A stretch of 64,000 nt of DNA from Nitrospirales bacterium (GTDB taxonomy: Bacteria; Nitrospirota; Nitrospiria; Nitrospirales; UBA8639), in the NCBI GenBank assembly GCA_963555755.3, contig OY820905.2, positions 2,784,001 through 2,848,000 on the forward strand, read 5' to 3'. Below the pieces are notes generated by a model. That model made no database searches, was not told the DNA's origin, and saw only the letters and a program-made list of their open reading frames with translations. Shown in pieces: positions 13,507 through 51,523 of this stretch (position 1 is its first letter; each line of letters opens with the position of its first letter). The position numbers and the translations under genes were made by a program.

Positions 13507-15063
13507 ATGAGCGCTAGGGACCTGTATGACAGCCTGCATCCCCTCGAAGTCCATCTCCTTGCGGCGTTGTTTGCACAATCAACTGCCACGTCTGACAGCA
13601 CACTCGCGGAACTGACGCCCCTCGATCCTTCGCAAATCAGCATGGCGCTGGGCTGGCTCCAGGCCAAAGCCCTGATCCAAACCGAATCCGAAACCATCAC
13701 TTTCCTGGTTGGGTTAACCGATGTAGGCCGAGGGTATTTGTCGAGCGGGTCTCCCGCGGAGTGGATTCTTCAATCCTGTGGGGAAGCGACACAAAATAGG
13801 AATTCGCTCACCGTCAAAGACCTGCAAGCCAAAGAACAGTTTCAACCCACTGAGTTGAGCCGGGCCATCGGGCTGTTGAAAAAAGAAGGCGCCATCCAAA
13901 TGGTCGCTGGGGGCGCCATTGAAACGACCGGCACACCCAGTCCAACCACCGAAACGCTCAAGGGTTTACTTCGGCAACTCAAGTCTTCCACCGAGGAGCT
14001 TCCTGCCTTTTCCACCGACAATCAAAACCTGCTGAAACAATATTCCGTGAAACGCGGGAATGCCAAGGAACCTTTCCGGATCGAAGAACGAGTGGAGCGA
14101 GCTTACACGCTCACCTCCGAAGGGCAACACGTGGCCAAACTTTGTCGTCCTGGTGCGACTGAGGAAATCTCTCAACTCACCCCAGACATGCTCAAGGATG
14201 GCACGTGGCGCAACAAACCGTTTAGAAAATACACCATCAATCTTCGACCACCTCGAGTAGCGCCTGGCCGGCGGCATCCTTATCGAGAGTTTCTCGATCT
14301 CGTAAAACGCCGGTTGGTGAGCATGGGATTTCAGGAGATGCGCGGCCCCTTGGTGGAAACCGAATTTTGGAACATGGATGCGCTCTACATGCCTCAGTTT
14401 CATCCGGCTCGCGCGATTCACGACGTGTACTTCGTGAAAAATCCCAGGCATGCTGATAAGATCCCGGAACCCTTTCTCTCTCGCGTTGCAGAAGCCCACG
14501 AACATGGCGGGTCTACGGGATCCACTGGTTGGGGCTATCAATACGACCGAGAACGGGCTAGCCGACTGGTTTTACGAAGCCAGGGCACCGCGGTATCGGC
14601 CCGAACATTAGCAGCCAATCCCTTGGTGCCTGGAAAGTATTTTTCGATTGCCCGGTGCTTTCGATACGACCAGGTGGATGCAACCCATGCCACGGACTTT
14701 TTCCAGGTTGAAGGAATTGTTCTTGGCGAAGACATCAATTTTCGCACGCTTCTCGGCCTTCTCACTCTTTTTGCCAAAGAGATGGCCCAGGCCAAAGAGA
14801 GCAAGTTTTTGCCAGCCTATTTTCCCTTTACGGAACCGTCCGTGGAGTTGCACGTTCGCCATCCTCGGCTGGGATGGATGGAGTTGGGAGGGGCCGGTCT
14901 GTTTCGACCGGAAGTGACTCACCCCCTCGGCGTGACCGTACCCGTGATTGCCTGGGGATTAGGTCTGGATCGAATGGCCATGATGGCGCTCGGACTTCAT
15001 GACATCCGAGATCTATTCTCTGTCGATCTGGAAAAAGTCAGAACCATGCGTGGACGCTTTTAG
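13507..15063 (+). CDS. pheS: Phenylalanine-tRNA ligase alpha subunit, long archaeal-type form
   Basis: 518 aa with N-terminal extension; FWNMDALYMPQFHPAR, YFPFTEPS, AWGLGLDR. Confidence 0.95.
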   Translation: MSARDLYDSLHPLEVHLLAALFAQSTATSDSTLAELTPLDPSQISMALGWLQAKALIQTESETITFLVGLTDVGRGYLSSGSPAEWILQSCGEATQNRNSLTVKDLQAKEQFQPTELSRAIGLLKKEGAIQMVAGGAIETTGTPSPTTETLKGLLRQLKSSTEELPAFSTDNQNLLKQYSVKRGNAKEPFRIEERVERAYTLTSEGQHVAKLCRPGATEEISQLTPDMLKDGTWRNKPFRKYTINLRPPRVAPGRRHPYREFLDLVKRRLVSMGFQEMRGPLVETEFWNMDALYMPQFHPARAIHDVYFVKNPRHADKIPEPFLSRVAEAHEHGGSTGSTGWGYQYDRERASRLVLRSQGTAVSARTLAANPLVPGKYFSIARCFRYDQVDATHATDFFQVEGIVLGEDINFRTLLGLLTLFAKEMAQAKESKFLPAYFPFTEPSVELHVRHPRLGWMELGGAGLFRPEVTHPLGVTVPVIAWGLGLDRMAMMALGLHDIRDLFSVDLEKVRTMRGRF

Positions 15064-15186
15064 CAGGATGCTGAAAAAGTCCGCCAGCGGCGTTCTCGGC
15101 CCCTTGTCGTGCTCACGTACTATGAGTACGCTCCGCGCGCCAAGGCGCCTGCGGCCTTGCTGGACAGCCTTTTTCAGCATCATGCT
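15062..15186. repeat. Family D element between pheS and pheT
   Basis: TIR GGATGCTGAAAAAG / CTTTTTCAGCATC; core GCTCACGTAC..GTACGCTCCG. Confidence 0.9.
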
Positions 15187-15238
15187 TTTGTTAAGGGGTT
15201 CAGAAACTTTTTAAACCATCAAAATTTTTGTTAACGAT

Positions 15239-16945
15239 ATGCCGACTATTTCCATTTTCCACAAAGATTTTGAATCGCTCATTGGCCGGGCTTCGACCAT
15301 TGATCAAATCGAGAACTGGTTGACTCTCGTGAAAGGGGAACTCAAGGATCACACCCCAGCCACTGGCGAAATACGAGTCGAACTGCAGGACAGCAATCGC
15401 CCCGATCTGTGGTGTGTGGAAGGCATCGCCAGACAAATACGCATCAAATTGCAGGAAGCTCCTGTTCCCTACCCATTCCTGCATACCAAGTCGCGTCCCA
15501 AACAAAAAATCACCGTGGCCAAAGGCATGGAGAAGGTTCGCCCCTTTGTCGCCGCATGTTGCTCAACAGGGTACCGGGTCACGGAAGAGGGATTGACGCA
15601 GCTGATTCAGGTTCAAGAAAAACTTGCTGATATTTTTGGGCACAAGCGCCAGACGGTCTCGATCGGCTTGTACCGCCTGAACAAGATTCATTTCCCGGTA
15701 ACCTATGGATTGGTCAAGCCGGAAGAAGCCCGATTCACGCCTCTCGGATTTTCGGAAAAGTTGACCCTCAAAGAAATTCTGACGGTTCATCCCAAAGGGA
15801 TCGAATACAGTTCCATCTTTGCGGATCATCCCTCGCTTCCTCTGTTGTGGGATAAGGAAGGCCAGATTCTTTCCTTTCCTCCGATCATCAATAGCCGCGA
15901 GATCGGAGAAGTCCAAGTTGGCGATTCCGACCTGCTTGTCGAAGTAACGGGAACGGATCTGAGGATGGTGCTGTTGACGTTGAATATCTTTGCCGCAAAT
16001 TTGGCTGATCGTGGAGCCGCCATCGAGCCCATTGAGATCGTCTATCCCTACGCCACCGAACGGGGTAAAACGATTCGGACACCCTGTGATATTAGCGAGG
16101 TTCAAAAAATTCCGCTTCGTGCCGTCGAGTCGGCCTTGGGGCTCCCAATGGGCGTGGAAACTGTTCAACGTGCGTTGACCGCCTATGGCTATCAGGTCAA
16201 AACCAGCCGACATACCCTGGCGGTACGATTACCCAGTTACCGAAGTGATGTGATGCATCCCATTGATGTGGCCGAAGACGTAGCGATTTCCCGAGGATAT
16301 GAATCCTTTGCGCCTATCATGCCGGCGCAATTTACGGTCGGTTCACTTTCAGCTCTTGAACTGACGTCAGACTACGTTCGCGATCAAATGGTGGGCATGG
16401 GATTTCAGGAAATGTTTTCCAATATTCTCATGTCACATGAAGACTTAGTGGAGCGCATGCAACTGACTCCGTCTGGCCACCCCGTGGTTGAAGTCGATAA
16501 TGTCATGTCTTTGAGTTTTTCCTGCCTTCGGTCATGGATCCTTCCCTCGCTCCTTCGTATTGAAACCGCATCCCCCCGAGCGTTCTATCCCCATCGTCTG
16601 TTTGAAATCGGCGAAGTGGCTGTCCCGAATCTCAGCCTCGAACTAGGATCGAAAACCGTCATTAAAATAGCTGGCTTGACGGCCCATCCCCATGCCAACT
16701 TTTCCGAGATTCACACTAGCCTTGATGTACTGATGTATTATCTCGTGAAGGATTACACCCTCGAACCCACAACTCATGGATCTTTCCTGGAAGGACGTGT
16801 GGGAAAAATAATGGTTGGCGGACAGTCAATCGGCCTGATCGGTGAACTCCACCCCGAAGTCCTGGAAGCCTGGCAAATTTCCATGCCCATCTCGGTTTTC
16901 GAACTCGAAGTGGATGCCCTGTGTCGAGAAGATCGCGAAGGGTAA
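15239..16945 (+). CDS. pheT: Phenylalanine-tRNA ligase beta subunit, short archaeal-type form
   Basis: 568 aa; NRPDLW, LSFPPIINS, RSDVMHPIDVAEDVAI, GELHPEVL. Confidence 0.94.
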   Translation: MPTISIFHKDFESLIGRASTIDQIENWLTLVKGELKDHTPATGEIRVELQDSNRPDLWCVEGIARQIRIKLQEAPVPYPFLHTKSRPKQKITVAKGMEKVRPFVAACCSTGYRVTEEGLTQLIQVQEKLADIFGHKRQTVSIGLYRLNKIHFPVTYGLVKPEEARFTPLGFSEKLTLKEILTVHPKGIEYSSIFADHPSLPLLWDKEGQILSFPPIINSREIGEVQVGDSDLLVEVTGTDLRMVLLTLNIFAANLADRGAAIEPIEIVYPYATERGKTIRTPCDISEVQKIPLRAVESALGLPMGVETVQRALTAYGYQVKTSRHTLAVRLPSYRSDVMHPIDVAEDVAISRGYESFAPIMPAQFTVGSLSALELTSDYVRDQMVGMGFQEMFSNILMSHEDLVERMQLTPSGHPVVEVDNVMSLSFSCLRSWILPSLLRIETASPRAFYPHRLFEIGEVAVPNLSLELGSKTVIKIAGLTAHPHANFSEIHTSLDVLMYYLVKDYTLEPTTHGSFLEGRVGKIMVGGQSIGLIGELHPEVLEAWQISMPISVFELEVDALCREDREG

Positions 16946-17011
16946 TTCTTAAAGCGTCCTGCCTGAAGAATCAGAAACACTCCTTTCGGTGTTGCCGAAG
17001 AATTATTTAAT

Positions 17012-17204
17012 GTGGGCTTTCGCGCCCACACGACGAGTCACTTTTGTTCCGGCAAAAGTGACCAAAACCATGTTCGCCCGTGCGCGGCCCTCCGGGTGCC
17101 TCCGCCTCCCTCCCGAATCAAGATGGCTCGGGACCTCGCTCCGCTCAAACAACCCTCGCCGAAAAGTCGATTCGGGATGGAGACTCCGCCGCGCCCAACG
17201 CGGG
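17012..17204 (+). repeat. Family E structured repeat E1 (alpha-like subtype)
   Basis: Outer hairpin, CACTTTTG..CAAAAGTG stem, invariant CTCGCTCCGCTCAAACA; 5 copies in window. Confidence 0.9.
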
Positions 17205-17404
17205 TTGAGGGGAGCTTGTGATATTTTTTGCTTTCCTAAACTCTCAACAAAAGATTTGATAATCAAATTTCCAAATTTGACCACAAATTCCAAATTTCTC
17301 CACAACCTTACCCCTTAACTTGATACCAATAGTTGACAGGTCAATCCATATCGGAAACTGGGGTTTCTCTTGATTTATAATTATCATGACAATATGATGG
17401 CATT

Positions 17405-17695
17405 ATGGTTGAACATTTCTTCACCTGGGATGAAAGCAAAAACCTAGAAAATCAACACAAACACGGGATCTCATTTAAAGAAGCTGCGACGATCTTCACC
17501 GATGAGAACGCGCGCATGATTCATGACCCGGACCATTCGGCAGATGAAGACCGATTCATTCTCCTTGGATTCAGTTCTAAAGCGCGGCTCATTGTTGTGG
17601 CACATACCTATCGGAAGCATGAAACGGAAATCCGAATTATCTCCGCTCGAAAAGCGGAAAAATATGAACGTGAAGAATATGGGAGTTTCCTATGA
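17405..17695 (+). CDS. brnT: BrnT-family (DUF497) ribonuclease toxin
   Basis: FTWDESKN..N..KHGISF, EDRFILLG, IRIISARKA. Confidence 0.9.
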   Translation: MVEHFFTWDESKNLENQHKHGISFKEAATIFTDENARMIHDPDHSADEDRFILLGFSSKARLIVVAHTYRKHETEIRIISARKAEKYEREEYGSFL

Positions 17696-17904
17696 GAAAA
17701 AGATACGATTTTTCCAAATCGGTAAAGAATCCTTATGCGAAGCAATTAAAGAAGCAGGTCACTCTTCGTCTCGGGATCGATGTTATCGCCTACTTCAAAA
17801 CGTTGGCTGAAGAAACAGGGATTCCGTACCAGAATCTGATAAATCTGTACCTTAAGGAGTGCGCGCATTCCGGGAAAAAACTTGGTCTCAAGTGGGCATC
17901 CTGA
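17692..17904 (+). CDS. brnA: BrnA/CopG-like antitoxin
   Basis: YDFS..KNPY, GIPYQNLINLYL; ATGA overlap with brnT. Confidence 0.85.
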   Translation: MRKRYDFSKSVKNPYAKQLKKQVTLRLGIDVIAYFKTLAEETGIPYQNLINLYLKECAHSGKKLGLKWAS

Positions 17905-17973
17905 AAATCTGCACAATAAGGAATGGTTCAACAGGTTGGAGGAAGATAGATTGTTTTTTAGGGAATTATTTTA

Positions 17974-18169
17974 TGCAGGGTTTCGTCCCCGCGCGACGAG
18001 TCACTTTTGTTTCGGCAAAAGTGACCAAAACCAAGTTCGCCCGTGCGCGGCCCCAAGGGGGTCCCTCCGCCTCCGCACCGAATAAGATGGCTCAGGAACT
18101 CGCTCCGCTCAAACAGCCTTCGCCAAAAAAGCCGATTCGGTACTACGGCTCCGCCGCGCCCAACGCGGG
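17974..18169 (+). repeat. Family E repeat E2 (alpha subtype)
   Basis: Homologous to E1 and E5. Confidence 0.9.
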
Positions 18170-18322
18170 TAGAGCTAGACTTTTGATATTCTTACAAAAC
18201 TCTTAACAAAAGATCTGCCTCCAAACCTTAACGACAGCCGATGAGTTTCATTGTATAGGGAATTCTAAGGGCTTATACTACGCAAACAGAAAGCCCAGAT
18301 CTTTCCCTGCACATTCGAATTA

Positions 18323-18536
18323 GGGACTGTTGAATATCTCATACACAGATCCCATAAATACGCCGGGGAAGACGACCAACATCAGTGAGAGGAAATGTTC
18401 AAAAAAGCATGCCCTGAGTCTTTCCGAAGGGTCTATCCAGCAAGGCCGCAGCCCTTTGGACGCGCAGAGCGTACTCTCAGTAGGTGAGCACGGCAAAAGG
18501 GCGAGAACGCCGCTGGTGACTTTTTTCAACATTCCC
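18323..18536. repeat. Family D element, extended form with nested mini-hairpin
   Basis: Core 18391-18536; extra GGGACTGTTGAATA end; insert at 18408-18431. Confidence 0.85.
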
Positions 18537-18571
18537 AATAATTAAGTGAAAATTAATCAGGACATATATTA

Positions 18572-19300
18572 ATGAAGGGTGGTTTAACCAAATCCCAGGT
18601 TGACCGACTCGGGGACAAATTAAGAAATAATCTGCATAATGAGACAGACCTAAAATTGCTTGATGAATTTCGTAGATCATTTCATGAGGCGTACAAAACA
18701 GCAATAAATACTATACGTGATCGGACCAATATAGAACCCACTGGCAGACCAGCTAAGTCTACAAGTGCAATTATCGAGAAACTTAAACGAGAAAGTATTC
18801 GGCTCAGCCAAATTCAAGATATCGCGGGATGCAGAATCGTAGTGGCTACAATTATTGAGCAAAACGTGGTCGTCTCTTCCCTATACGAAGCTTTTCCAGA
18901 GAAAATTATAGTTGACCGTCGACTTAAACCCAGTCACGGGTATCGGGGAGTTCATATCATCTCCCAGATCAACGAAAAACCTATTGAAATTCAAGTCCGA
19001 AGCACTTTGCAACACCTATGGGCTGAATTTTCTGAGAAGTTGTCAGACGTTGTTGACCCCAGTATTAAGTATGGGGGTGGAGATGCTATAGTTCGAAAAC
19101 TGCTCCAAGATTGCACCTTACTTGTAGAGGAAATAGAAAGAATCGAATTAGGTATTGCGGGTCGAAAGAAGAAAAAATTAGACAGAAATAACAAAATTCA
19201 GTTGGAGGATTTTCAAGGCAATGTAGGAAAGATTAAAAACAAAATGGCAAAAGAACTCAAGAATTTTATAAGAGAATATTCAGAGTTATCGGAGCAATGA
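18572..19300 (+). CDS. RelA/SpoT synthetase-domain protein (SAS), CapRel/PhRel-like putative toxin
   Basis: RPAKS..IIEKL, QDIAGCRI, GYRGVH, EIQVRS.LQHLWAE; no hydrolase domain. Confidence 0.88.
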   Translation: MKGGLTKSQVDRLGDKLRNNLHNETDLKLLDEFRRSFHEAYKTAINTIRDRTNIEPTGRPAKSTSAIIEKLKRESIRLSQIQDIAGCRIVVATIIEQNVVVSSLYEAFPEKIIVDRRLKPSHGYRGVHIISQINEKPIEIQVRSTLQHLWAEFSEKLSDVVDPSIKYGGGDAIVRKLLQDCTLLVEEIERIELGIAGRKKKKLDRNNKIQLEDFQGNVGKIKNKMAKELKNFIREYSELSEQ

Positions 19301-19303
19301 GAA

Positions 19304-19546
19304 ATGATTTTTTTAATGGAATACGATCGATCAAAAGGAGAGTTAGTGAAATTCACCAGCTTCCAGGATGCTGACCGAACGAAAGCTGAAAATCTAAGGT
19401 TAAAGATTGAGATGGAGCTTCATAAACTTCATCAAGAACGAGAAATAGTATTATTAGAAGCTCCTAGTGAAGACGCCCTCCGTCGTACACATCGACGCTA
19501 CTTTGAAAAAGCAAGTCAGATAGGCCAGTCTGTGAGCGAAGGCTAG
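19304..19546 (+). CDS. Small protein, putative antitoxin of the upstream SAS
   Basis: Starts 3 bp after the SAS stop; EIVLLEAPSEDALRRTHRRYF resembles the CapRel C-terminal antitoxin region. Confidence 0.7.
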   Translation: MIFLMEYDRSKGELVKFTSFQDADRTKAENLRLKIEMELHKLHQEREIVLLEAPSEDALRRTHRRYFEKASQIGQSVSEG

Positions 19547-19687
19547 CAATCTGCTCAAGCTGACTTTTTGAGCAGCGTATGGTTTAGAATGAATGTTGGG
19601 TGAGAAAAAATCTGCATAAATCCCCGTTTGATTTCCCATCTCCGCGCCCCGGTTTAAAAATTTGATTTGTTTCTTGCTTATCTCCTC

Positions 19688-19882
19688 CGCCTTCGGGCGC
19701 GGCGGAGCTGCGGTGCCGAATTCGACTATTCGGCGAGGGCTGTTTGAGCGGAGCGAGTTCCCGAGCCATTTAATTCGGCACCGGGGCGGAGTTCACCCGT
19801 AGGGACGCGCACGGGCGAAAATGGTTTTGGGTCCTTTTGCCGAAACAAAAGTGTCTCGTCGTGCCGGGGCGAAACCCGGCAT
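19688..19882 (-). repeat. Family E repeat E3 (beta subtype)
   Basis: TGTTTGAGCGGAGCGAG; closest to E4. Confidence 0.9.
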
Positions 19883-19950
19883 TAATAAAAACCAAACCAC
19901 TTTGTATACTGAGATGAAATTGAAAAAGATTGAGAAGGGAAAGACTCTAC

Positions 19951-19984
19951 CTCCCCTCACCCCTCCTTACAAAGGAGGGGGGAG
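19951..19984. repeat. Small REP-like hairpin
   Basis: CCCCTCCTT-ACA-AAGGAGGGG; could also terminate the minus-strand operon. Confidence 0.5.
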
Positions 19985-20045
19985 AAGAGAGACAGTTTTT
20001 TATAAAGGCCGAGGTTTTACAGGATAAGGCCTCAAAGGTTGAAGC

Positions 20046-20291
20046 TTAATCGTCGTCATCATCATCGTCGTCATCATCGTCGGCTTCCAGCGCTTCCTGC
20101 CGCATTTGCTCTTCCATTGCATTGTGAATCAACAAACGGAAGAACATCGAAATGACTGACCCTTTTTCCAGAGTCCCACCAGGTGGGACAGCAATCCGGC
20201 CTTCTTCCACCATTTTATCCAGCCACTTTTTTTGGTCTGGTGTCACGTGGACCGGTATTTCAATTAAGGGAATTCTCCCAAACATATCCAT
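20046..20291 (-). CDS. Small hypothetical protein with poly-Asp tail
   Basis: AAGGAGG RBS; 11 C-terminal Asp. Confidence 0.75.
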   Translation of the reverse strand: MDMFGRIPLIEIPVHVTPDQKKWLDKMVEEGRIAVPPGGTLEKGSVISMFFRLLIHNAMEEQMRQEALEADDDDDDDDDDD

Positions 20292-20334
20292 GACAGAAAC
20301 CTCCTTAACAATTCCGTAAAAAAGAAATTAAATT

Positions 20335-21144
20335 TTATAATCCCAGAACATCAGCCATGCCGTACAATCCTGGCGGCTGACTCACTACCCATTCTGCTGC
20401 ACGCAAGGCTCCTCGCGCAAATGGGTCTCGATTATGGGCGCGATGCGTAATTTCAATTCGTTCCCCAGGCCCGCCATACAGCACGGTATGGTCGCCAACG
20501 ATATCACCGGCTCGAATAGTTTGAATGCCGATTTCTTTCTGTGAACGCTCACCAATGATGCCATGGCGTGAATACACGCCGGTTTCTTGGAGATCCCAGC
20601 CCTTGGCTGCAGCCAAGGCTTCTGCGAGTTTCAGAGCGGTTCCGCTTGGGGCATCCTTCTTCTTGTTATGATGCGCATCGATAATTTCCAGGTCATAGTC
20701 GTCGCCTAAGGCTTGGGCCACTTTCCCAATGATCTGGAGCAGCACATTGATCCCCACGCTCATGTTTGGAGCTTGCACACAGGGGATTAACTCGGCGTGC
20801 TCCCGAAGCTGAATCATTTCATCAGGAGAAAATCCTGTGGTGCCGATGACCATGGCGCGTTTGTGCTGGACGGCTTGAGTAAGATGGTTCAGCGTAGCAG
20901 TCGGTGAAGTGAAATCGACTACGACATCGGCCTGAGGCAGCGTCTTGGCTAGATCATCTATTAAAGTTACATTAAGATGTCCACACCCGGCCAAGTCCCC
21001 GGCGTCTTTTCCAAGGTCCAGGTGTCCTTTCGCTTCGGTCGCTCCGGTGAGTTGTAGGCTAGCCGACTCTTTGACAAGGGAAACCAAACGTTTACCCATT
21101 CGCCCGGCGGCTCCGGTGATGATGACTTTGGTTGGGGAAGCCAT
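20335..21144 (-). CDS. dapB: 4-hydroxy-tetrahydrodipicolinate reductase
   Basis: GAAGRMG, GTTG, HHNKKKDAPSGTA. Confidence 0.96.
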   Translation of the reverse strand: MASPTKVIITGAAGRMGKRLVSLVKESASLQLTGATEAKGHLDLGKDAGDLAGCGHLNVTLIDDLAKTLPQADVVVDFTSPTATLNHLTQAVQHKRAMVIGTTGFSPDEMIQLREHAELIPCVQAPNMSVGINVLLQIIGKVAQALGDDYDLEIIDAHHNKKKDAPSGTALKLAEALAAAKGWDLQETGVYSRHGIIGERSQKEIGIQTIRAGDIVGDHTVLYGGPGERIEITHRAHNRDPFARGALRAAEWVVSQPPGLYGMADVLGL

Positions 21145-36278: not shown

Positions 36279-36473
36279 ATGCGGGGTTTCGTCCCCGCAC
36301 GACGAGGCACTTTTGTTTCGGCGAAAGTACCCAAAACCATGTTCGCTCGTTCGCGTCCCTGCGGGTAAACTCCGCCCCGGCACCGAATTAAATGGCTGCG
36401 CAACTCGCTCCGCTCAAACAGTGCTCGCCGAATAGTCGAATTCGGCACCGCGGCTCTGCCGCGTCCGAAGGCG
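36279..36473 (+). repeat. Family E repeat E4 (beta subtype)
   Basis: Closest to E3, including the inward flank. Confidence 0.9.
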
Positions 36474-36704
36474 TGGGAGATACTCAAAAAACAAATAAAG
36501 TTTTTTAACGGGAGGCAGGGAGACCGAACCATAAACGCAATTCTCATGCCTCTGATCTAAGTTCTGGTACTTGGATTATTAGCTGATATGTGGCATTGAT
36601 AGACATGCTCCCTTCTCGAATTTCCTTCTTTTTTCGGCACAGATAAATTTGGTAGGCGCCCATGAGCCCCAAAAGTTTTCCTCTACTTAAGGAGAAAAAA
36701 TAAG

Positions 36705-38036
36705 TTGGCAATTTGTCTAGCTATTTTCCTAATTGCTTTTAATCTATTTATCCCACCCCCAGCGATAGCCGTGGATTTTGAGGATATCCCACCCTCTGTT
36801 CGGCAATCCGTAATCCGGCTTTCAGGAAATTCAGGGTGTGCGACGGGGTTTATCGTTGGAAATCAAATCGTGACAAATGCCCACGTGACAGAAAAACTTT
36901 GTCCTTACGGAGAATGTGATCCCATCACGGTTAAAATACTGGACTCGGTAGAAACCGAATCCTGGAAATATTTAAAAAACCAAGAGGCCGTAATGGTACA
37001 AGAAGTTCCTACCTTAGACGTGGCTCTGCTTAAAATACCGAGCATCACCCAAAATTCAATTTCACAAACCAGTTTTTCTTCAGCGAAAATTGGTGGCCAG
37101 GTCTATATTTTAGGGTTCCCAAGTTGCGGGGACATTACGCTGACAGAAGGCAAAATTTTGGCAAAAACCCCCACTGGATTCCGCACCTCCGCTTTGACAA
37201 AAAAGGGAAGTAGCGGCAGTCCGGTCTTTAACCAAAACTTTGAGATCATTGGGGTCGCAATGCAAAGTAGCAGTCTTATAGGCGGAATTGCCTCGTTACC
37301 TTTTAACACTTCAACACCTACCGATTTTGTAGATATAGGCTATACACAGACTGTTCTCTGGTCTAAAGATTCAGAGTTAGCCCTTATCGAAATGAAAATC
37401 TTAAATTCCATATACCGTGATTTTGTCGTCTCATCAAAAGGCCTAGATCGAATGCGTGCCAGCTTTGACTTCATTATGGCCGCAGATGTTGTATTGCGAC
37501 GTTCGTCATTTTTTCTATTGGACAAGGGAACCCTGTTTGCCCTTTTTGCTGGACGAGAAAATTCTCTGAATTTTTTAAGACATCCGTTTAAGCCCTCAAG
37601 CCCGGAATTGCTAGAAGCCGAAAAACTTGGGACGGCCTTTGCCTTGGAAGTGTATGGGTTGCACGATGAAACCTTTGAGGAGATTGATGTTCCTGCCCTT
37701 CTTGAGAACCTACGAGATTCCGGGCGTTCTCGCCATCATGCTCAAAGTCTTGAAGAACTTATTTCATTGGCACAAGTCCATAAACCCGCTAATTGGATTT
37801 TTTCAATTTTATTATTCTTTGGGTTTGGGTTGTCCTTACTTGCGGCATGGGGATGGTCCTTAGGTTATGTCTTTAAAGCCGCTAATGGCTCCTGGCACCT
37901 TCGAATTCTAAAAATGATGGTGATAGGTTTGATGTTGTGGCCTTTATCGTTGATTGCATTCTGGCTGATGAATAAACCACAACAAATTCCTGAGCCCACC
38001 AATTCCACTAACCCATCGAATCAGGGGATTCACTGA
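36705..38036 (+). CDS. Trypsin-like serine protease with signal peptide and C-terminal TM helices
   Basis: Triad motifs IVTNAHV, DVALL, GSSGSPV; start uncertain. Confidence 0.8.
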   Translation: MAICLAIFLIAFNLFIPPPAIAVDFEDIPPSVRQSVIRLSGNSGCATGFIVGNQIVTNAHVTEKLCPYGECDPITVKILDSVETESWKYLKNQEAVMVQEVPTLDVALLKIPSITQNSISQTSFSSAKIGGQVYILGFPSCGDITLTEGKILAKTPTGFRTSALTKKGSSGSPVFNQNFEIIGVAMQSSSLIGGIASLPFNTSTPTDFVDIGYTQTVLWSKDSELALIEMKILNSIYRDFVVSSKGLDRMRASFDFIMAADVVLRRSSFFLLDKGTLFALFAGRENSLNFLRHPFKPSSPELLEAEKLGTAFALEVYGLHDETFEEIDVPALLENLRDSGRSRHHAQSLEELISLAQVHKPANWIFSILLFFGFGLSLLAAWGWSLGYVFKAANGSWHLRILKMMVIGLMLWPLSLIAFWLMNKPQQIPEPTNSTNPSNQGIH

Positions 38037-38077
38037 GGGTTTCAGGCTATAGTCCCTGTGTGGCTATTTTTTCTTAC

Positions 38078-38270
38078 CGCCTTGGGGTGCGGCGGAGCCG
38101 CAGCCCCGAATCGATTTCTCGGCGAGGGCTGTTTGAGCGGAGCGAGTTCCCTCGCCATCTTATTCGGGGCGGAGGCGGAGGGACCCCATGGGCCGCGCAC
38201 GGGCGGAAATGGTTTTGGGTCCTTTTGCCGAAACGAAAGGACCTCGTCGCGCGGGGACGAAACCCCGCAT
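38078..38270 (-). repeat. Family E repeat E5 (alpha subtype)
   Basis: Closest to E2 (GGGGTCCCTCCGCCTCCGC.CCGAATAAGATGGC). Confidence 0.9.
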
Positions 38271-50446: not shown

Positions 50447-51523
50447 TATGCCTTCCCATTTGACTAAGGTTAGTCCCTAGACTAGTCTGCTGGACTATGG
50501 ACACAGGGTATGCTGCTGATATCTTGGATTTTTCTGTTAGGTTCCACACCGAAGAAGCGTGCTTCGAGTACTTGCGGGCGATTCGGTGGCCAGACGGGTT
50601 TATGTGTCCAGCTTGCGGTCATCGCGGTGGTTGGTGGCTCAAAAAATATTTCCGGTTTGAGTGTTCGTCGTGTCATAGACAGACATCACCGCTAAGCGGC
50701 ACAGTGATGCATAGATCGCACTTGCCGCTACGGCTTTGGTTTTGGGCTGCGGCACAGTGATGCATAGATCGCACTTGCCGCTACGGCTTTGGTTTTGGGC
50801 TGCCTATTTCGTCTCCACGCACACACCTGGCATCAGTGCTGTGCAATTGCAGCGTCAACTCAGTATCAAGAAGGTGGATAAGAAGGTGGATAGCGCCTGG
50901 TATTTGCTCCACAGATTGCGACGAGGAATGGTACGACAGAACCGTGAACGGCTCGCAGGAACAGTTGAAGCCGATGAAACCCATATCGGTGGACCGGTAA
51001 AAGGCAAAACGGGCCGTGGCGTCGCGAAAGCGAAAACCAAGACGTTAATAGCCGGAGCCGTAGAAATTGTCACGTACACACAAGGGGATCACTTTCGAGA
51101 GAAAGCAGGGCGTTTACGATTAGCGATTCTTCAAGACGCTGGAGAGAACGAGATCAAAGCATTCCTCAATAGCCATGTCGCTGAGGGCAGTAAGATCAAG
51201 TCCGATGGTTGGAAGGGATACTCGGCAAAAGCCTTGGCAGGATACGAACACCTGAGACGGACCCAGGGTGACCCAGCAAGTGCTGGGAAGCACGCTCCAC
51301 ACATCCATAGAGCGTTCGGCAATCTGCAGACCTGGCTGAACGGGATTCACCATGGAGTGGATTCAAAATACCTGCAACACTATCTTGATGAGTTTGTCTT
51401 TCGCTATAACCGCCGTGAGACTCCAATGAGTACCTTCCAGAGTTTGTTGAAAATCCTGACCAGCAGCTCAAAACCCTTGGGATTCAATAAACTGAAGCAA
51501 CCTTAGTTAAATGGGAAGGCATA
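50447..51523 (+). mobile_element. IS1595-family insertion sequence
   Basis: 25-bp TIR TATGCCTTCCCATTTRACTAAGGTT (1 mismatch); 8-bp DR TGGGATAA at 50439-50446 and 51524-51531. Confidence 0.92.
50497..51506 (+). pseudogene. IS1595 transposase, frameshifted
   Basis: Zn ribbon RWPDGFMCPAC; VEADET, SDGW, YLDEFVFRYNRR; split by a 53-bp tandem duplication. Confidence 0.88.

Follow-up and report, generated by a model that had tools for sequence, protein, structure and literature searches.

The stretch of DNA analysed here (the window) comprises 64,000 nucleotides of the 4.62-Mb genome of a Nitrospirales bacterium, G000 (contig OY820905.2, positions 2,784,001 to 2,848,000). At its positions 17012 to 19882 it holds an island of toxin-antitoxin (TA) genes that is bordered and divided by copies of a structured repeat, termed E. 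Read from left to right, the order is pheT, E1 on the plus strand, brnT, brnA, E2 on the plus strand, a D repeat, a small alarmone synthetase (SAS) gene, a gene for 80 amino acids (aa), E3 on the minus strand, an 81-aa gene and dapB. The GC content across the cargo is 0.37-0.43 versus about 0.49-0.56 in the flanking genes, and the coordinates and composition bear out the element order and AT-rich cargo that had been reported in an initial annotation of this DNA. Contigs from public runs span pheT-E1 (X14), E1-brnT (X10) and both the junction of the 80-aa gene with E3 and the dapB side of E3 (X16), so the order is not an assembly artefact; X16 is an RNA run used as contigs only, which carries no expression information, and joints between E copies in public runs may stem from paralogues. 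The cargo contigs were less deep than the flanks in three metagenome runs, an observation that was set aside since contig depth does not equal the share of cells.

The left border of the island is the core gene pheT (15239-16945, plus strand; Pfam tRNA_synthFbeta and B5), which is present in 20 of the 21 genomes searched. E1 (17012-17205, plus strand, end type N) is made up of hairpin 1, hairpin 2 and a long branched stem, with a tip at about 17133-17152 that differs from the family tip at two bases. It is followed by the brnT toxin gene (17405-17695, plus strand; PF04365, E 5e-28) and the brnA antitoxin gene (17692-17904, plus strand; PF14384, E 4e-7). E2 (17975-18170, plus strand, tip 18097-18116, end type N) stands in tandem with E1, to which it is 85% identical and with which it has the 3' tail in common. 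Beyond it lie the D repeat (18422-18541, not stranded), a separate palindromic miniature element with 288 copies outside E, the 242-aa SAS gene (18572-19300, plus strand; Pfam RelA_SpoT, E 2.5e-13) and the 80-aa gene (19304-19546, plus strand). E3 (19687-19880, minus strand, tip 19740-19759, end type G) opposes E1 and E2 and abuts the right-border core gene, a conserved 81-aa gene (20046-20291, minus strand) that ends the operon of dapB (itself matched by its Pfam profile) and is 82-99% identical in relatives. A separate purine/pyrimidine hairpin with a weak Rfam match below the gathering score lies beside E3 at 19925-20000.

The window contains a second inward-facing pair, in which E4 (about 36281-36481, plus strand) forms the left arm and E5 (38068-38270, minus strand) the right arm around a 421-aa trypsin-like protease gene (36771-38036, plus strand; Pfam Trypsin_2). 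Pairwise identity among the five E copies is 75-89%, and each of them adjoins a gene that is absent from or variable at the corresponding site of relatives, as expected if all five sit at accessory-gene borders. Further along, at 50696-50801, 53 bases are duplicated exactly in tandem.

The second cargo of the island is probably a toxSAS toxin, judging by sequence, with the 80-aa gene as its putative antitoxin. The best PDB matches of the SAS are 9erv and 7ztb (E 4e-6), the latter of which we take to be CapRel. Homologues of the SAS were found in none of six genomes of the same genus and in 4 of 114 genomes of the family, and the 80-aa gene follows the SAS gene in four of four outside genomes; in three of these (L432, L433, L434) the SAS homologue is interrupted and its partner intact. 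The 80-aa gene has 67 homologues, no Pfam match and no meaningful PDB match. Unfused CapRel/PhRel toxSAS pairs, as described in passages of PMC9712102, likewise consist of a SAS gene followed by a small conserved partner, and the best structure matches of the window SAS are 372-aa RelA/SpoT proteins. However, a profile of the 80-aa family gave no match to the C-terminus of CapRel.

Anatomy, placement and cargo of E

A DNA profile hidden Markov model recovered 123 E elements in G000, 80 of them with both ends, and heavily interrupted copies are common (an earlier blastn search had given 152 merged fragments and 46 uninterrupted copies). Each arm of about 195 bases combines an AT-rich lead with two hairpins (one GC, one T/A), a CCAAAAC linker and a long branched stem whose tip is conserved. 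Four helices are well supported, and 15 of their 32 base pairs occur as at least two Watson-Crick types among 70 distinct copies, a count from which three further short, script-picked and spurious-looking helices were excluded. The two strands are not equivalent. Wobble cells number 86 on the minus strand versus 35 on the plus strand. Of 45 copies, all fold better as the minus strand under RNA parameters, and 39 do so under DNA parameters. The minus-strand sequence of the tip is GA-GC-GNA-GC-GA, where N is free and all four bases occur; its GC-GNA-GC loop is presumably a stable motif of DNA rather than RNA.

Integron attC sites carry RYYYAAC and GTTRRRY core boxes at both ends. None of 71 E copies has these boxes on either strand, and none of the 71 single arms has terminal inverted repeats, a pair being inverted by construction; this agrees with the initial view that E resembles neither attC nor the ends of an insertion sequence (IS). 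No long target duplication was detected at 17 inward pairs, whose longest shared flank word is 5.1 bases versus 5.1 in mismatched controls, and the dinucleotide TA is found at both sides of 4 of the 17, which is compatible with a 2-base TA duplication. There was no Rfam match at the gathering score over E in window positions 14500-20500 or at 20 outside loci, and a promoter scan remained at chance level.

The initial annotation recognised neither two inward-facing arms as the unit nor the pan-bacterial range of the family. When the 100 elements scoring 60 bits or more are considered, 41 neighbour pairs are less than 7 kb apart versus 14 expected, with a maximum of 23 in 1000 random placements. 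Within 6 kb, 18 neighbours face inward, 21 stand in tandem (11 on the minus and 10 on the plus strand) and one pair faces outward. Six loci of G000, plus one half, can be aligned as a single doublet with a common spacer. Several unrelated loci hold empty pairs that have their spacer in common, and mini-pairs in which the fusion runs through hairpin 2 are found at three loci in G000 and one in G006. The pairing of N and G ends is a weak signal (10 mixed, 3 GG and 0 NN among 13 typed pairs), as three pairs belong to one doublet family. Where the nearest gene on the 5' side lies within 130 bp, it is co-oriented with E in 30 cases and divergent in 8 (94 copies), so E tends to follow a stop codon; with respect to the leading and lagging strands, the ratio of 57 to 43 is no bias of note.

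E is not placed at random relative to genes. Across the genome, E is no more than 700 bp away from 20 of 80 toxin genes, as opposed to 163 of 3690 other genes (odds ratio 7.2, p 5e-10; five toxin families on contig C1, with the other genes taken from a simple gene caller of our own). Four other repeats of 87-288 copies each, A, B, C and D, show no such enrichment (2, 3, 2 and 3 of the 80 toxins, respectively), and half of the 20 E-linked toxins have E on both sides. Together with the excess of close pairs, the odds ratio rules out the random placement that had been named as refuting a link between E and accessory genes, and the 20 toxins and 21 tandem neighbours sustain the earlier proposal that E brackets accessory genes and stacks in tandem. 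GC content is below the genome value in 27 of 34 stretches between E copies. When the genes in these stretches are tabulated by Pfam, as had been suggested, they include HicA, HigB, ParE, PIN, BrnT, DUF433/DUF5615, DUF4160/DUF2442, HEPN and HNH families, and also many unknown and some housekeeping genes. Across the family, the pairs point to variable defence cargo, namely HicAB, HigBA, VapBC, ParDE, BrnTA, MazEF, DarTG, Fic, KAP NTPase and toxSAS. G000 has a tandem duplication, at C1:2471185-2472281 and 2475558-2476654, that comprises a LexA-like gene together with its E.

E in relatives and in other phyla

E was detected in 13 of 18 other genomes of the family and in none of 12 from other families of the order; the exact tip was present in 23 of 44 other family genomes and in none of 156 others in a class sample. 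The empty pheT-dapB site that had been anticipated in relatives does not exist in any relative examined, as both genes have other neighbours there. Usually pheT adjoins a 122-aa gene, probably rplT, and the 81-aa gene adjoins a 427-aa gene, probably enolase, both names being drawn from size and order. The pheT/122-aa junction is without E in 7 of 9 genomes and carries an inward pair in 2, while the 81-aa/427-aa junction is without E in 9 of 11 and carries one E in 1 and a pair in 1. At the place of E3, an E is found in G005, G002 and G018 and a pair in G003. The junction of PCP_red, the core gene left of E4, with maf carries E in G013, G017 and L309, each time with a different cargo. In G000, all three junctions have acquired new partners, to which they are joined across E-bordered islands.

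Nine E copies of G000 have a flank in common with copies in G005 or G006; on comparison, three match throughout and six are mosaic or replaced, likely as a result of exchange within E. At L085, a vapBC cargo and the 3' part of E match G000 with 5 differences in 90, while the 5' part of E and its flank do not match (11 of 58) and derive from another locus. Cargo homology between species ends at or inside E. The distance between E copies is 0.164 for tandem neighbours, 0.214 for inward partners and 0.218 for all pairs. The mosaic copies, the closeness of tandem neighbours and the variation in hairpins 1 and 2, which is independent of that in the main stem (rho at most 0.14), fit crossovers at several points in E, although cargo transport is not thereby proven. 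The earlier suggestion that E is a recombination site is thus partly upheld, since six of nine copies at shared sites are recombinant; the dedicated enzyme acting in trans that was part of it is without support. In genus g4 (G105:C1:170734-224363, G101, G132, G125, G164), E is crowded in a region syntenic to 2.34-2.41 Mb of G000, which suggests local spread.

The 20-base tip is not confined to this lineage. At least 80 loci in a species collection carry it, and the matches listed include nine phyla, as assigned from record titles. The distribution is patchy, with 13 of 151 genomes positive in a sample of the Ralstonia family. A flanking inverted repeat of at least 5 bases accompanies 73 of 97 outside tips. 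By a looser test with controls, hairpin 2 lies upstream of 58 of 91 outside tips versus 4 of 90 downstream and 0.4 in shuffles; a strict test finds it at 8 of 91. In one Ralstonia genome with 54 tips (G217), all 17 neighbour pairs closer than 2 kb face inward, and 16 of the 17 join an A-type to a B-type arm by eye, a script scoring 11 as mixed and 6 as unclear. Pairs also occur in Variovorax (three from 6 tips), Haemophilus (two from 5) and Parabacteroides (four from 10). The tip pattern is present in 22 viral contigs, many with host-like flanks, and a longer-tip pattern in none; a plasmid search with E2 returned no match.

Several of the outside loci have features of their own. In Lachnospiraceae (L146:2330-4200), an inward pair encloses 1.5 kb of iterated sequence with DnaA-box-like words beside a D5 primase gene. 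Pair spacers at L289, L290 and L188 are built of imperfect tandem repeats. Outer ends at L268, L269, L444, L451 and L458 bear one to four extra tandem copies of hairpin 1 (genus g4, Ralstonia) or hairpin 2 (Parabacteroides), resembling repeated re-initiation at the end. In a viral contig of 2275 bases (L098), repeats of the same mini-hairpin precede a tip that lacks the long stem. An outer-membrane efflux-type reading frame crosses the left arm of a 1.68-kb Ralstonia pair (L287:1293-3026), and pairs with this type of spacing recur in three other genomes.

Explanations for the E-bordered islands

With moderate confidence, we favour the reading that E is a REPIN-like doublet family whose arms, placed behind core genes, act as crossover sites at which TA and defence segments are gained, stacked and swapped. 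On this reading, E is half of a non-coding, non-autonomous element that has two arms facing inward, and such pairs sit behind the 3' ends of genes. A pair or a single arm, when established at a site, could offer in its 200 bases enough likeness to other copies for crossovers inside E, and these would bring in, remove or stack E-bordered segments. Such crossovers would explain the tandem runs (E1-brnTA-E2), the swapped cargo and the reshuffled neighbours of core genes. Loss of a TA module is costly to its host, which may be why TA modules persist in E slots. A further step, for which there is less support than for the crossovers, is that the folded single strand with its invariant tip might be recognised by a protein that spreads the pair. 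That the tip does not change from phylum to phylum suggests either a host reader that is itself conserved or a structural requirement.

A number of observations weigh against this reading. In G000, 35 of 58 E clusters are single copies, as are most of the 29 tips in Flavobacterium, and part of the inward bias arises because E is co-oriented with its upstream gene and meets its partner at convergent junctions. The pheT junction of G009 has an insert without E, and in G006 the empty and filled alleles diverge 10-60 unexplained bases before E begins. No excised circle was observed, nor any insertion that was both recent and precise. What mosaicism demonstrates is gene conversion, and this can take place without movement of cargo. 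Correlations as low as those between the hairpins and the main stem also arise from short segments with few variable sites. Hairpins resembling the Neisseria NTS repeat are enriched near toxins as well (5 of 80, odds ratio 3.4). Outside the lineage, no TA family was found among the 99 proteins scanned of 137 listed neighbours in the all-phyla sample, which are mostly housekeeping genes, and the Ralstonia pairs hold ordinary genes or repeats. The cassette role may therefore be lineage-specific.

Some of these points agree with a passive hotspot, in which E is a selfish element of the REP or MITE kind (MITEs being miniature transposable elements with inverted repeats) and TA modules collect independently of it in tolerant places behind gene ends. 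The missing TA link in other phyla is one; in addition, 60 of the 80 toxins of G000 lie away from E and all eight SAS or brnTA homologue loci in other genera are without E, both of which also count against the crossover-site reading and the initial interpretation, and the same sites draw an IS, a group II intron, IS110 and small hairpin repeats. Passive accumulation would not lead one to expect that repeats A to D lack toxin enrichment, that ten of the 20 E-linked toxins are flanked by E on both sides or that cargo homology between species stops at or inside E, and we consider it unlikely.

It is also conceivable, if improbable, that a dedicated enzyme encoded elsewhere, such as a site-specific recombinase or HUH nuclease, cuts E at a fixed point and moves the cassettes. 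Strand-specific folding is known for attC and REP substrates, and E shares it. The strict conservation of the tip and of hairpin 2, the mini-pairs fused through hairpin 2 and the A-plus-B Ralstonia pairs would likewise suit such an enzyme. However, no transposase, recombinase or nuclease recurs beside or between E copies in the proteins sampled, and the crossover points differ between E copies. The Pfam searches covered 108 G000 proteins at E clusters, 99 of the 137 all-phyla neighbours (also compared all-versus-all), 49 proteins from relatives and a further 82, of which 80 came from 101 listed at metagenome loci; four long Ralstonia pairs were read directly. Only a broken one of the 17 Y1_Tnp matches in G000 lies within 2.5 kb of E, beside an E fragment. 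In a scan of 91 family genomes, ten that bear E (G003, G105, G132, G089, G101, G153, G164, G009, G183, G198) gave no Y1_Tnp match, although weak members can be missed and a weak Y1 did turn up in one of the ten by another search. Tyrosine recombinases in G000 (12 of 16 matches checked) are mostly far from E, and a gene that we take to be IntI-like from its motifs is 90.7 kb from the nearest copy. One E is immediately preceded by a XerD-like gene, which was interpreted as the end of a core gene of the ordinary kind. None of the three GIY-YIG genes of G000 is tied to E, and one lies beside E in G002. These gene lists of G000 give no backing to a link of E with HUH/RAYT, tyrosine-recombinase or GIY-YIG genes, for which a test had been suggested, or to mobilisation in trans.

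Between the inward pairs sampled there was no autonomous IS with E-like ends. The transposases met at E are inserted into it or between its arms and have ends of their own; the intruders comprise an IS encoding a 780-aa DruA-DDE protein, the D repeat, group II intron genes and IS110. The insertion site of the DruA-DDE IS, which is 2.58 kb long, is E's variable loop, where about 10 bases are duplicated (C1:575846-578619, 1962083, 3276681, 3296262, 3637136), and at 575846 it lies between two inverted 5' halves of E, likely an inversion scar. The 14-kb contig C2 of G000 is a copy of C1:4141231-4153174 with this IS in E, so the assembly contains a single E site as two alleles. At C1:1007360 and 3616204, genes of group II introns lie next to E fragments that are truncated immediately behind hairpin 2, and an insert of about 660 bases occupies the same point in several copies (823750, 3131186, 3779139). 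E may thus be a group II intron target.

Somewhat less probable again is the idea that the tip is a signal for the host machinery, namely a priming or primosome-loading site in single-stranded DNA for a universal host protein, with two facing signals allowing the DNA that they enclose to be copied. An enzyme of the element's own would then be unneeded, and the idea can coexist with the crossover-site reading. The invariance of the tip across nine phyla, with one free base in the GC-GNA-GC loop, is in keeping with it, as is the Lachnospiraceae pair around DnaA-box-like and iterated sequence, but this origin-like spacer is a single anecdote and no plasmid matched E. ColE1, which carries PriA-loading signals (PMC3167613), has a 15-base look-alike with 2 mismatches between its origin region and rop; this match is within chance (0.66 expected, 96 of 200 shuffles), and the available passages of PMC3167613 contain no primosome-site sequence. 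A wider and doubtful proposal, to which we give nearly as much weight as to the passive hotspot, would join the two levels: E would be the local form of ancient pan-bacterial paired signals in single-stranded DNA that need no enzyme of their own, their invariant tip may be read by a universal host protein while the two facing arms direct the copying or recombination of any DNA between them, and this lineage may have turned the pairs to integrase-free, integron-like capture and stacking of defence cassettes.

That E is a structured RNA regulating adjacent toxin genes or stabilising the upstream message is very improbable, despite its strong covariation and frequent position right after a stop codon, as no Rfam family was matched at the gathering score at the loci searched, the strand transcribed would be E-plus here and E-minus in those Bacteroidota loci that were seen, the strand that folds better lies antisense to pheT and heavily interrupted copies are common.

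Comparison with known systems

No description of E was found in the literature or in Rfam, with subscription journals and supplements outside the coverage; motif tables of non-coding RNA surveys, such as PMC8632094 and PMC6429828, could hold the motif. A folded element of 200 bases that is absent from Rfam and has one and the same 20-base tip in nine phyla would represent a widespread kind of small mobile DNA that has been overlooked. It also offers a testable account of how TA modules arrive at sites in the chromosome and are replaced there. Should passive recombination be all that is involved, E is still a new repeat family and a marker of rearrangement points.

The closest likeness is to REPINs, which in the passages of PMC3116915 are inverted doublets with a less conserved spacer, occur alongside singlets and tandem clusters, and have folded single-stranded DNA as their likely substrate. 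E shows the same doublet organisation, given that pairs face inward in 17 of 17 cases in G217 and in three of three in G222 and that one doublet recurs at six G000 loci. The REP sequences of that account are palindromes of 20-40 bases (PMC3116915), whereas E arms are about 200 bases long, branched and self-folding. Left and right E arms also tend to differ in subtype, the tip is common to many phyla, no RAYT (Y1_Tnp) gene stands beside E, and E pairs often hold genes.

The dRS3/NTS repeats of Neisseria, with the GIY-YIG nuclease Ssn, resemble E in surrounding variable genes, in being proposed to supply homology for recombination and in having hairpins that act as single-stranded DNA, as far as passages of PMC11893778 describe them. 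NTS is unrelated in sequence and size (about 30 bases, CGTC-tagged; PMC11893778), and no GIY-YIG gene is tied to E. The NTS-like hairpins that occur inside the E spacer are separate passengers. Minimal mobile elements provide a further parallel to E.

Integrons, by their generally known features, are similar in strand-specific folding, in position behind stop codons, in stacked arrays rich in TA and defence genes and in being targeted by group II introns and IS110. E differs in that it lacks attC boxes, follows core genes such as pheT, forms convergent arrays and has its nearest IntI-like gene 90 kb away. Like MITEs and composite MITE transposons, as covered in parts of PMC10969869 and PMC4596501, E is non-coding, multi-copy and non-autonomous, and a pair amounts to long inverted ends around cargo. 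Unlike MITEs, a single arm has no terminal inverted repeat, no long target duplication rises above chance and the outer ends are imprecise; BrickBuilt elements have IS5-type ends that are unrelated to E (passages of PMC4596501). Taken together, E works like REPINs and the Neisseria dRS3/NTS regions with an integron-like cargo, yet belongs to none of them, and, as in integron arrays, the unknown genes between its pairs are candidate anti-phage systems.

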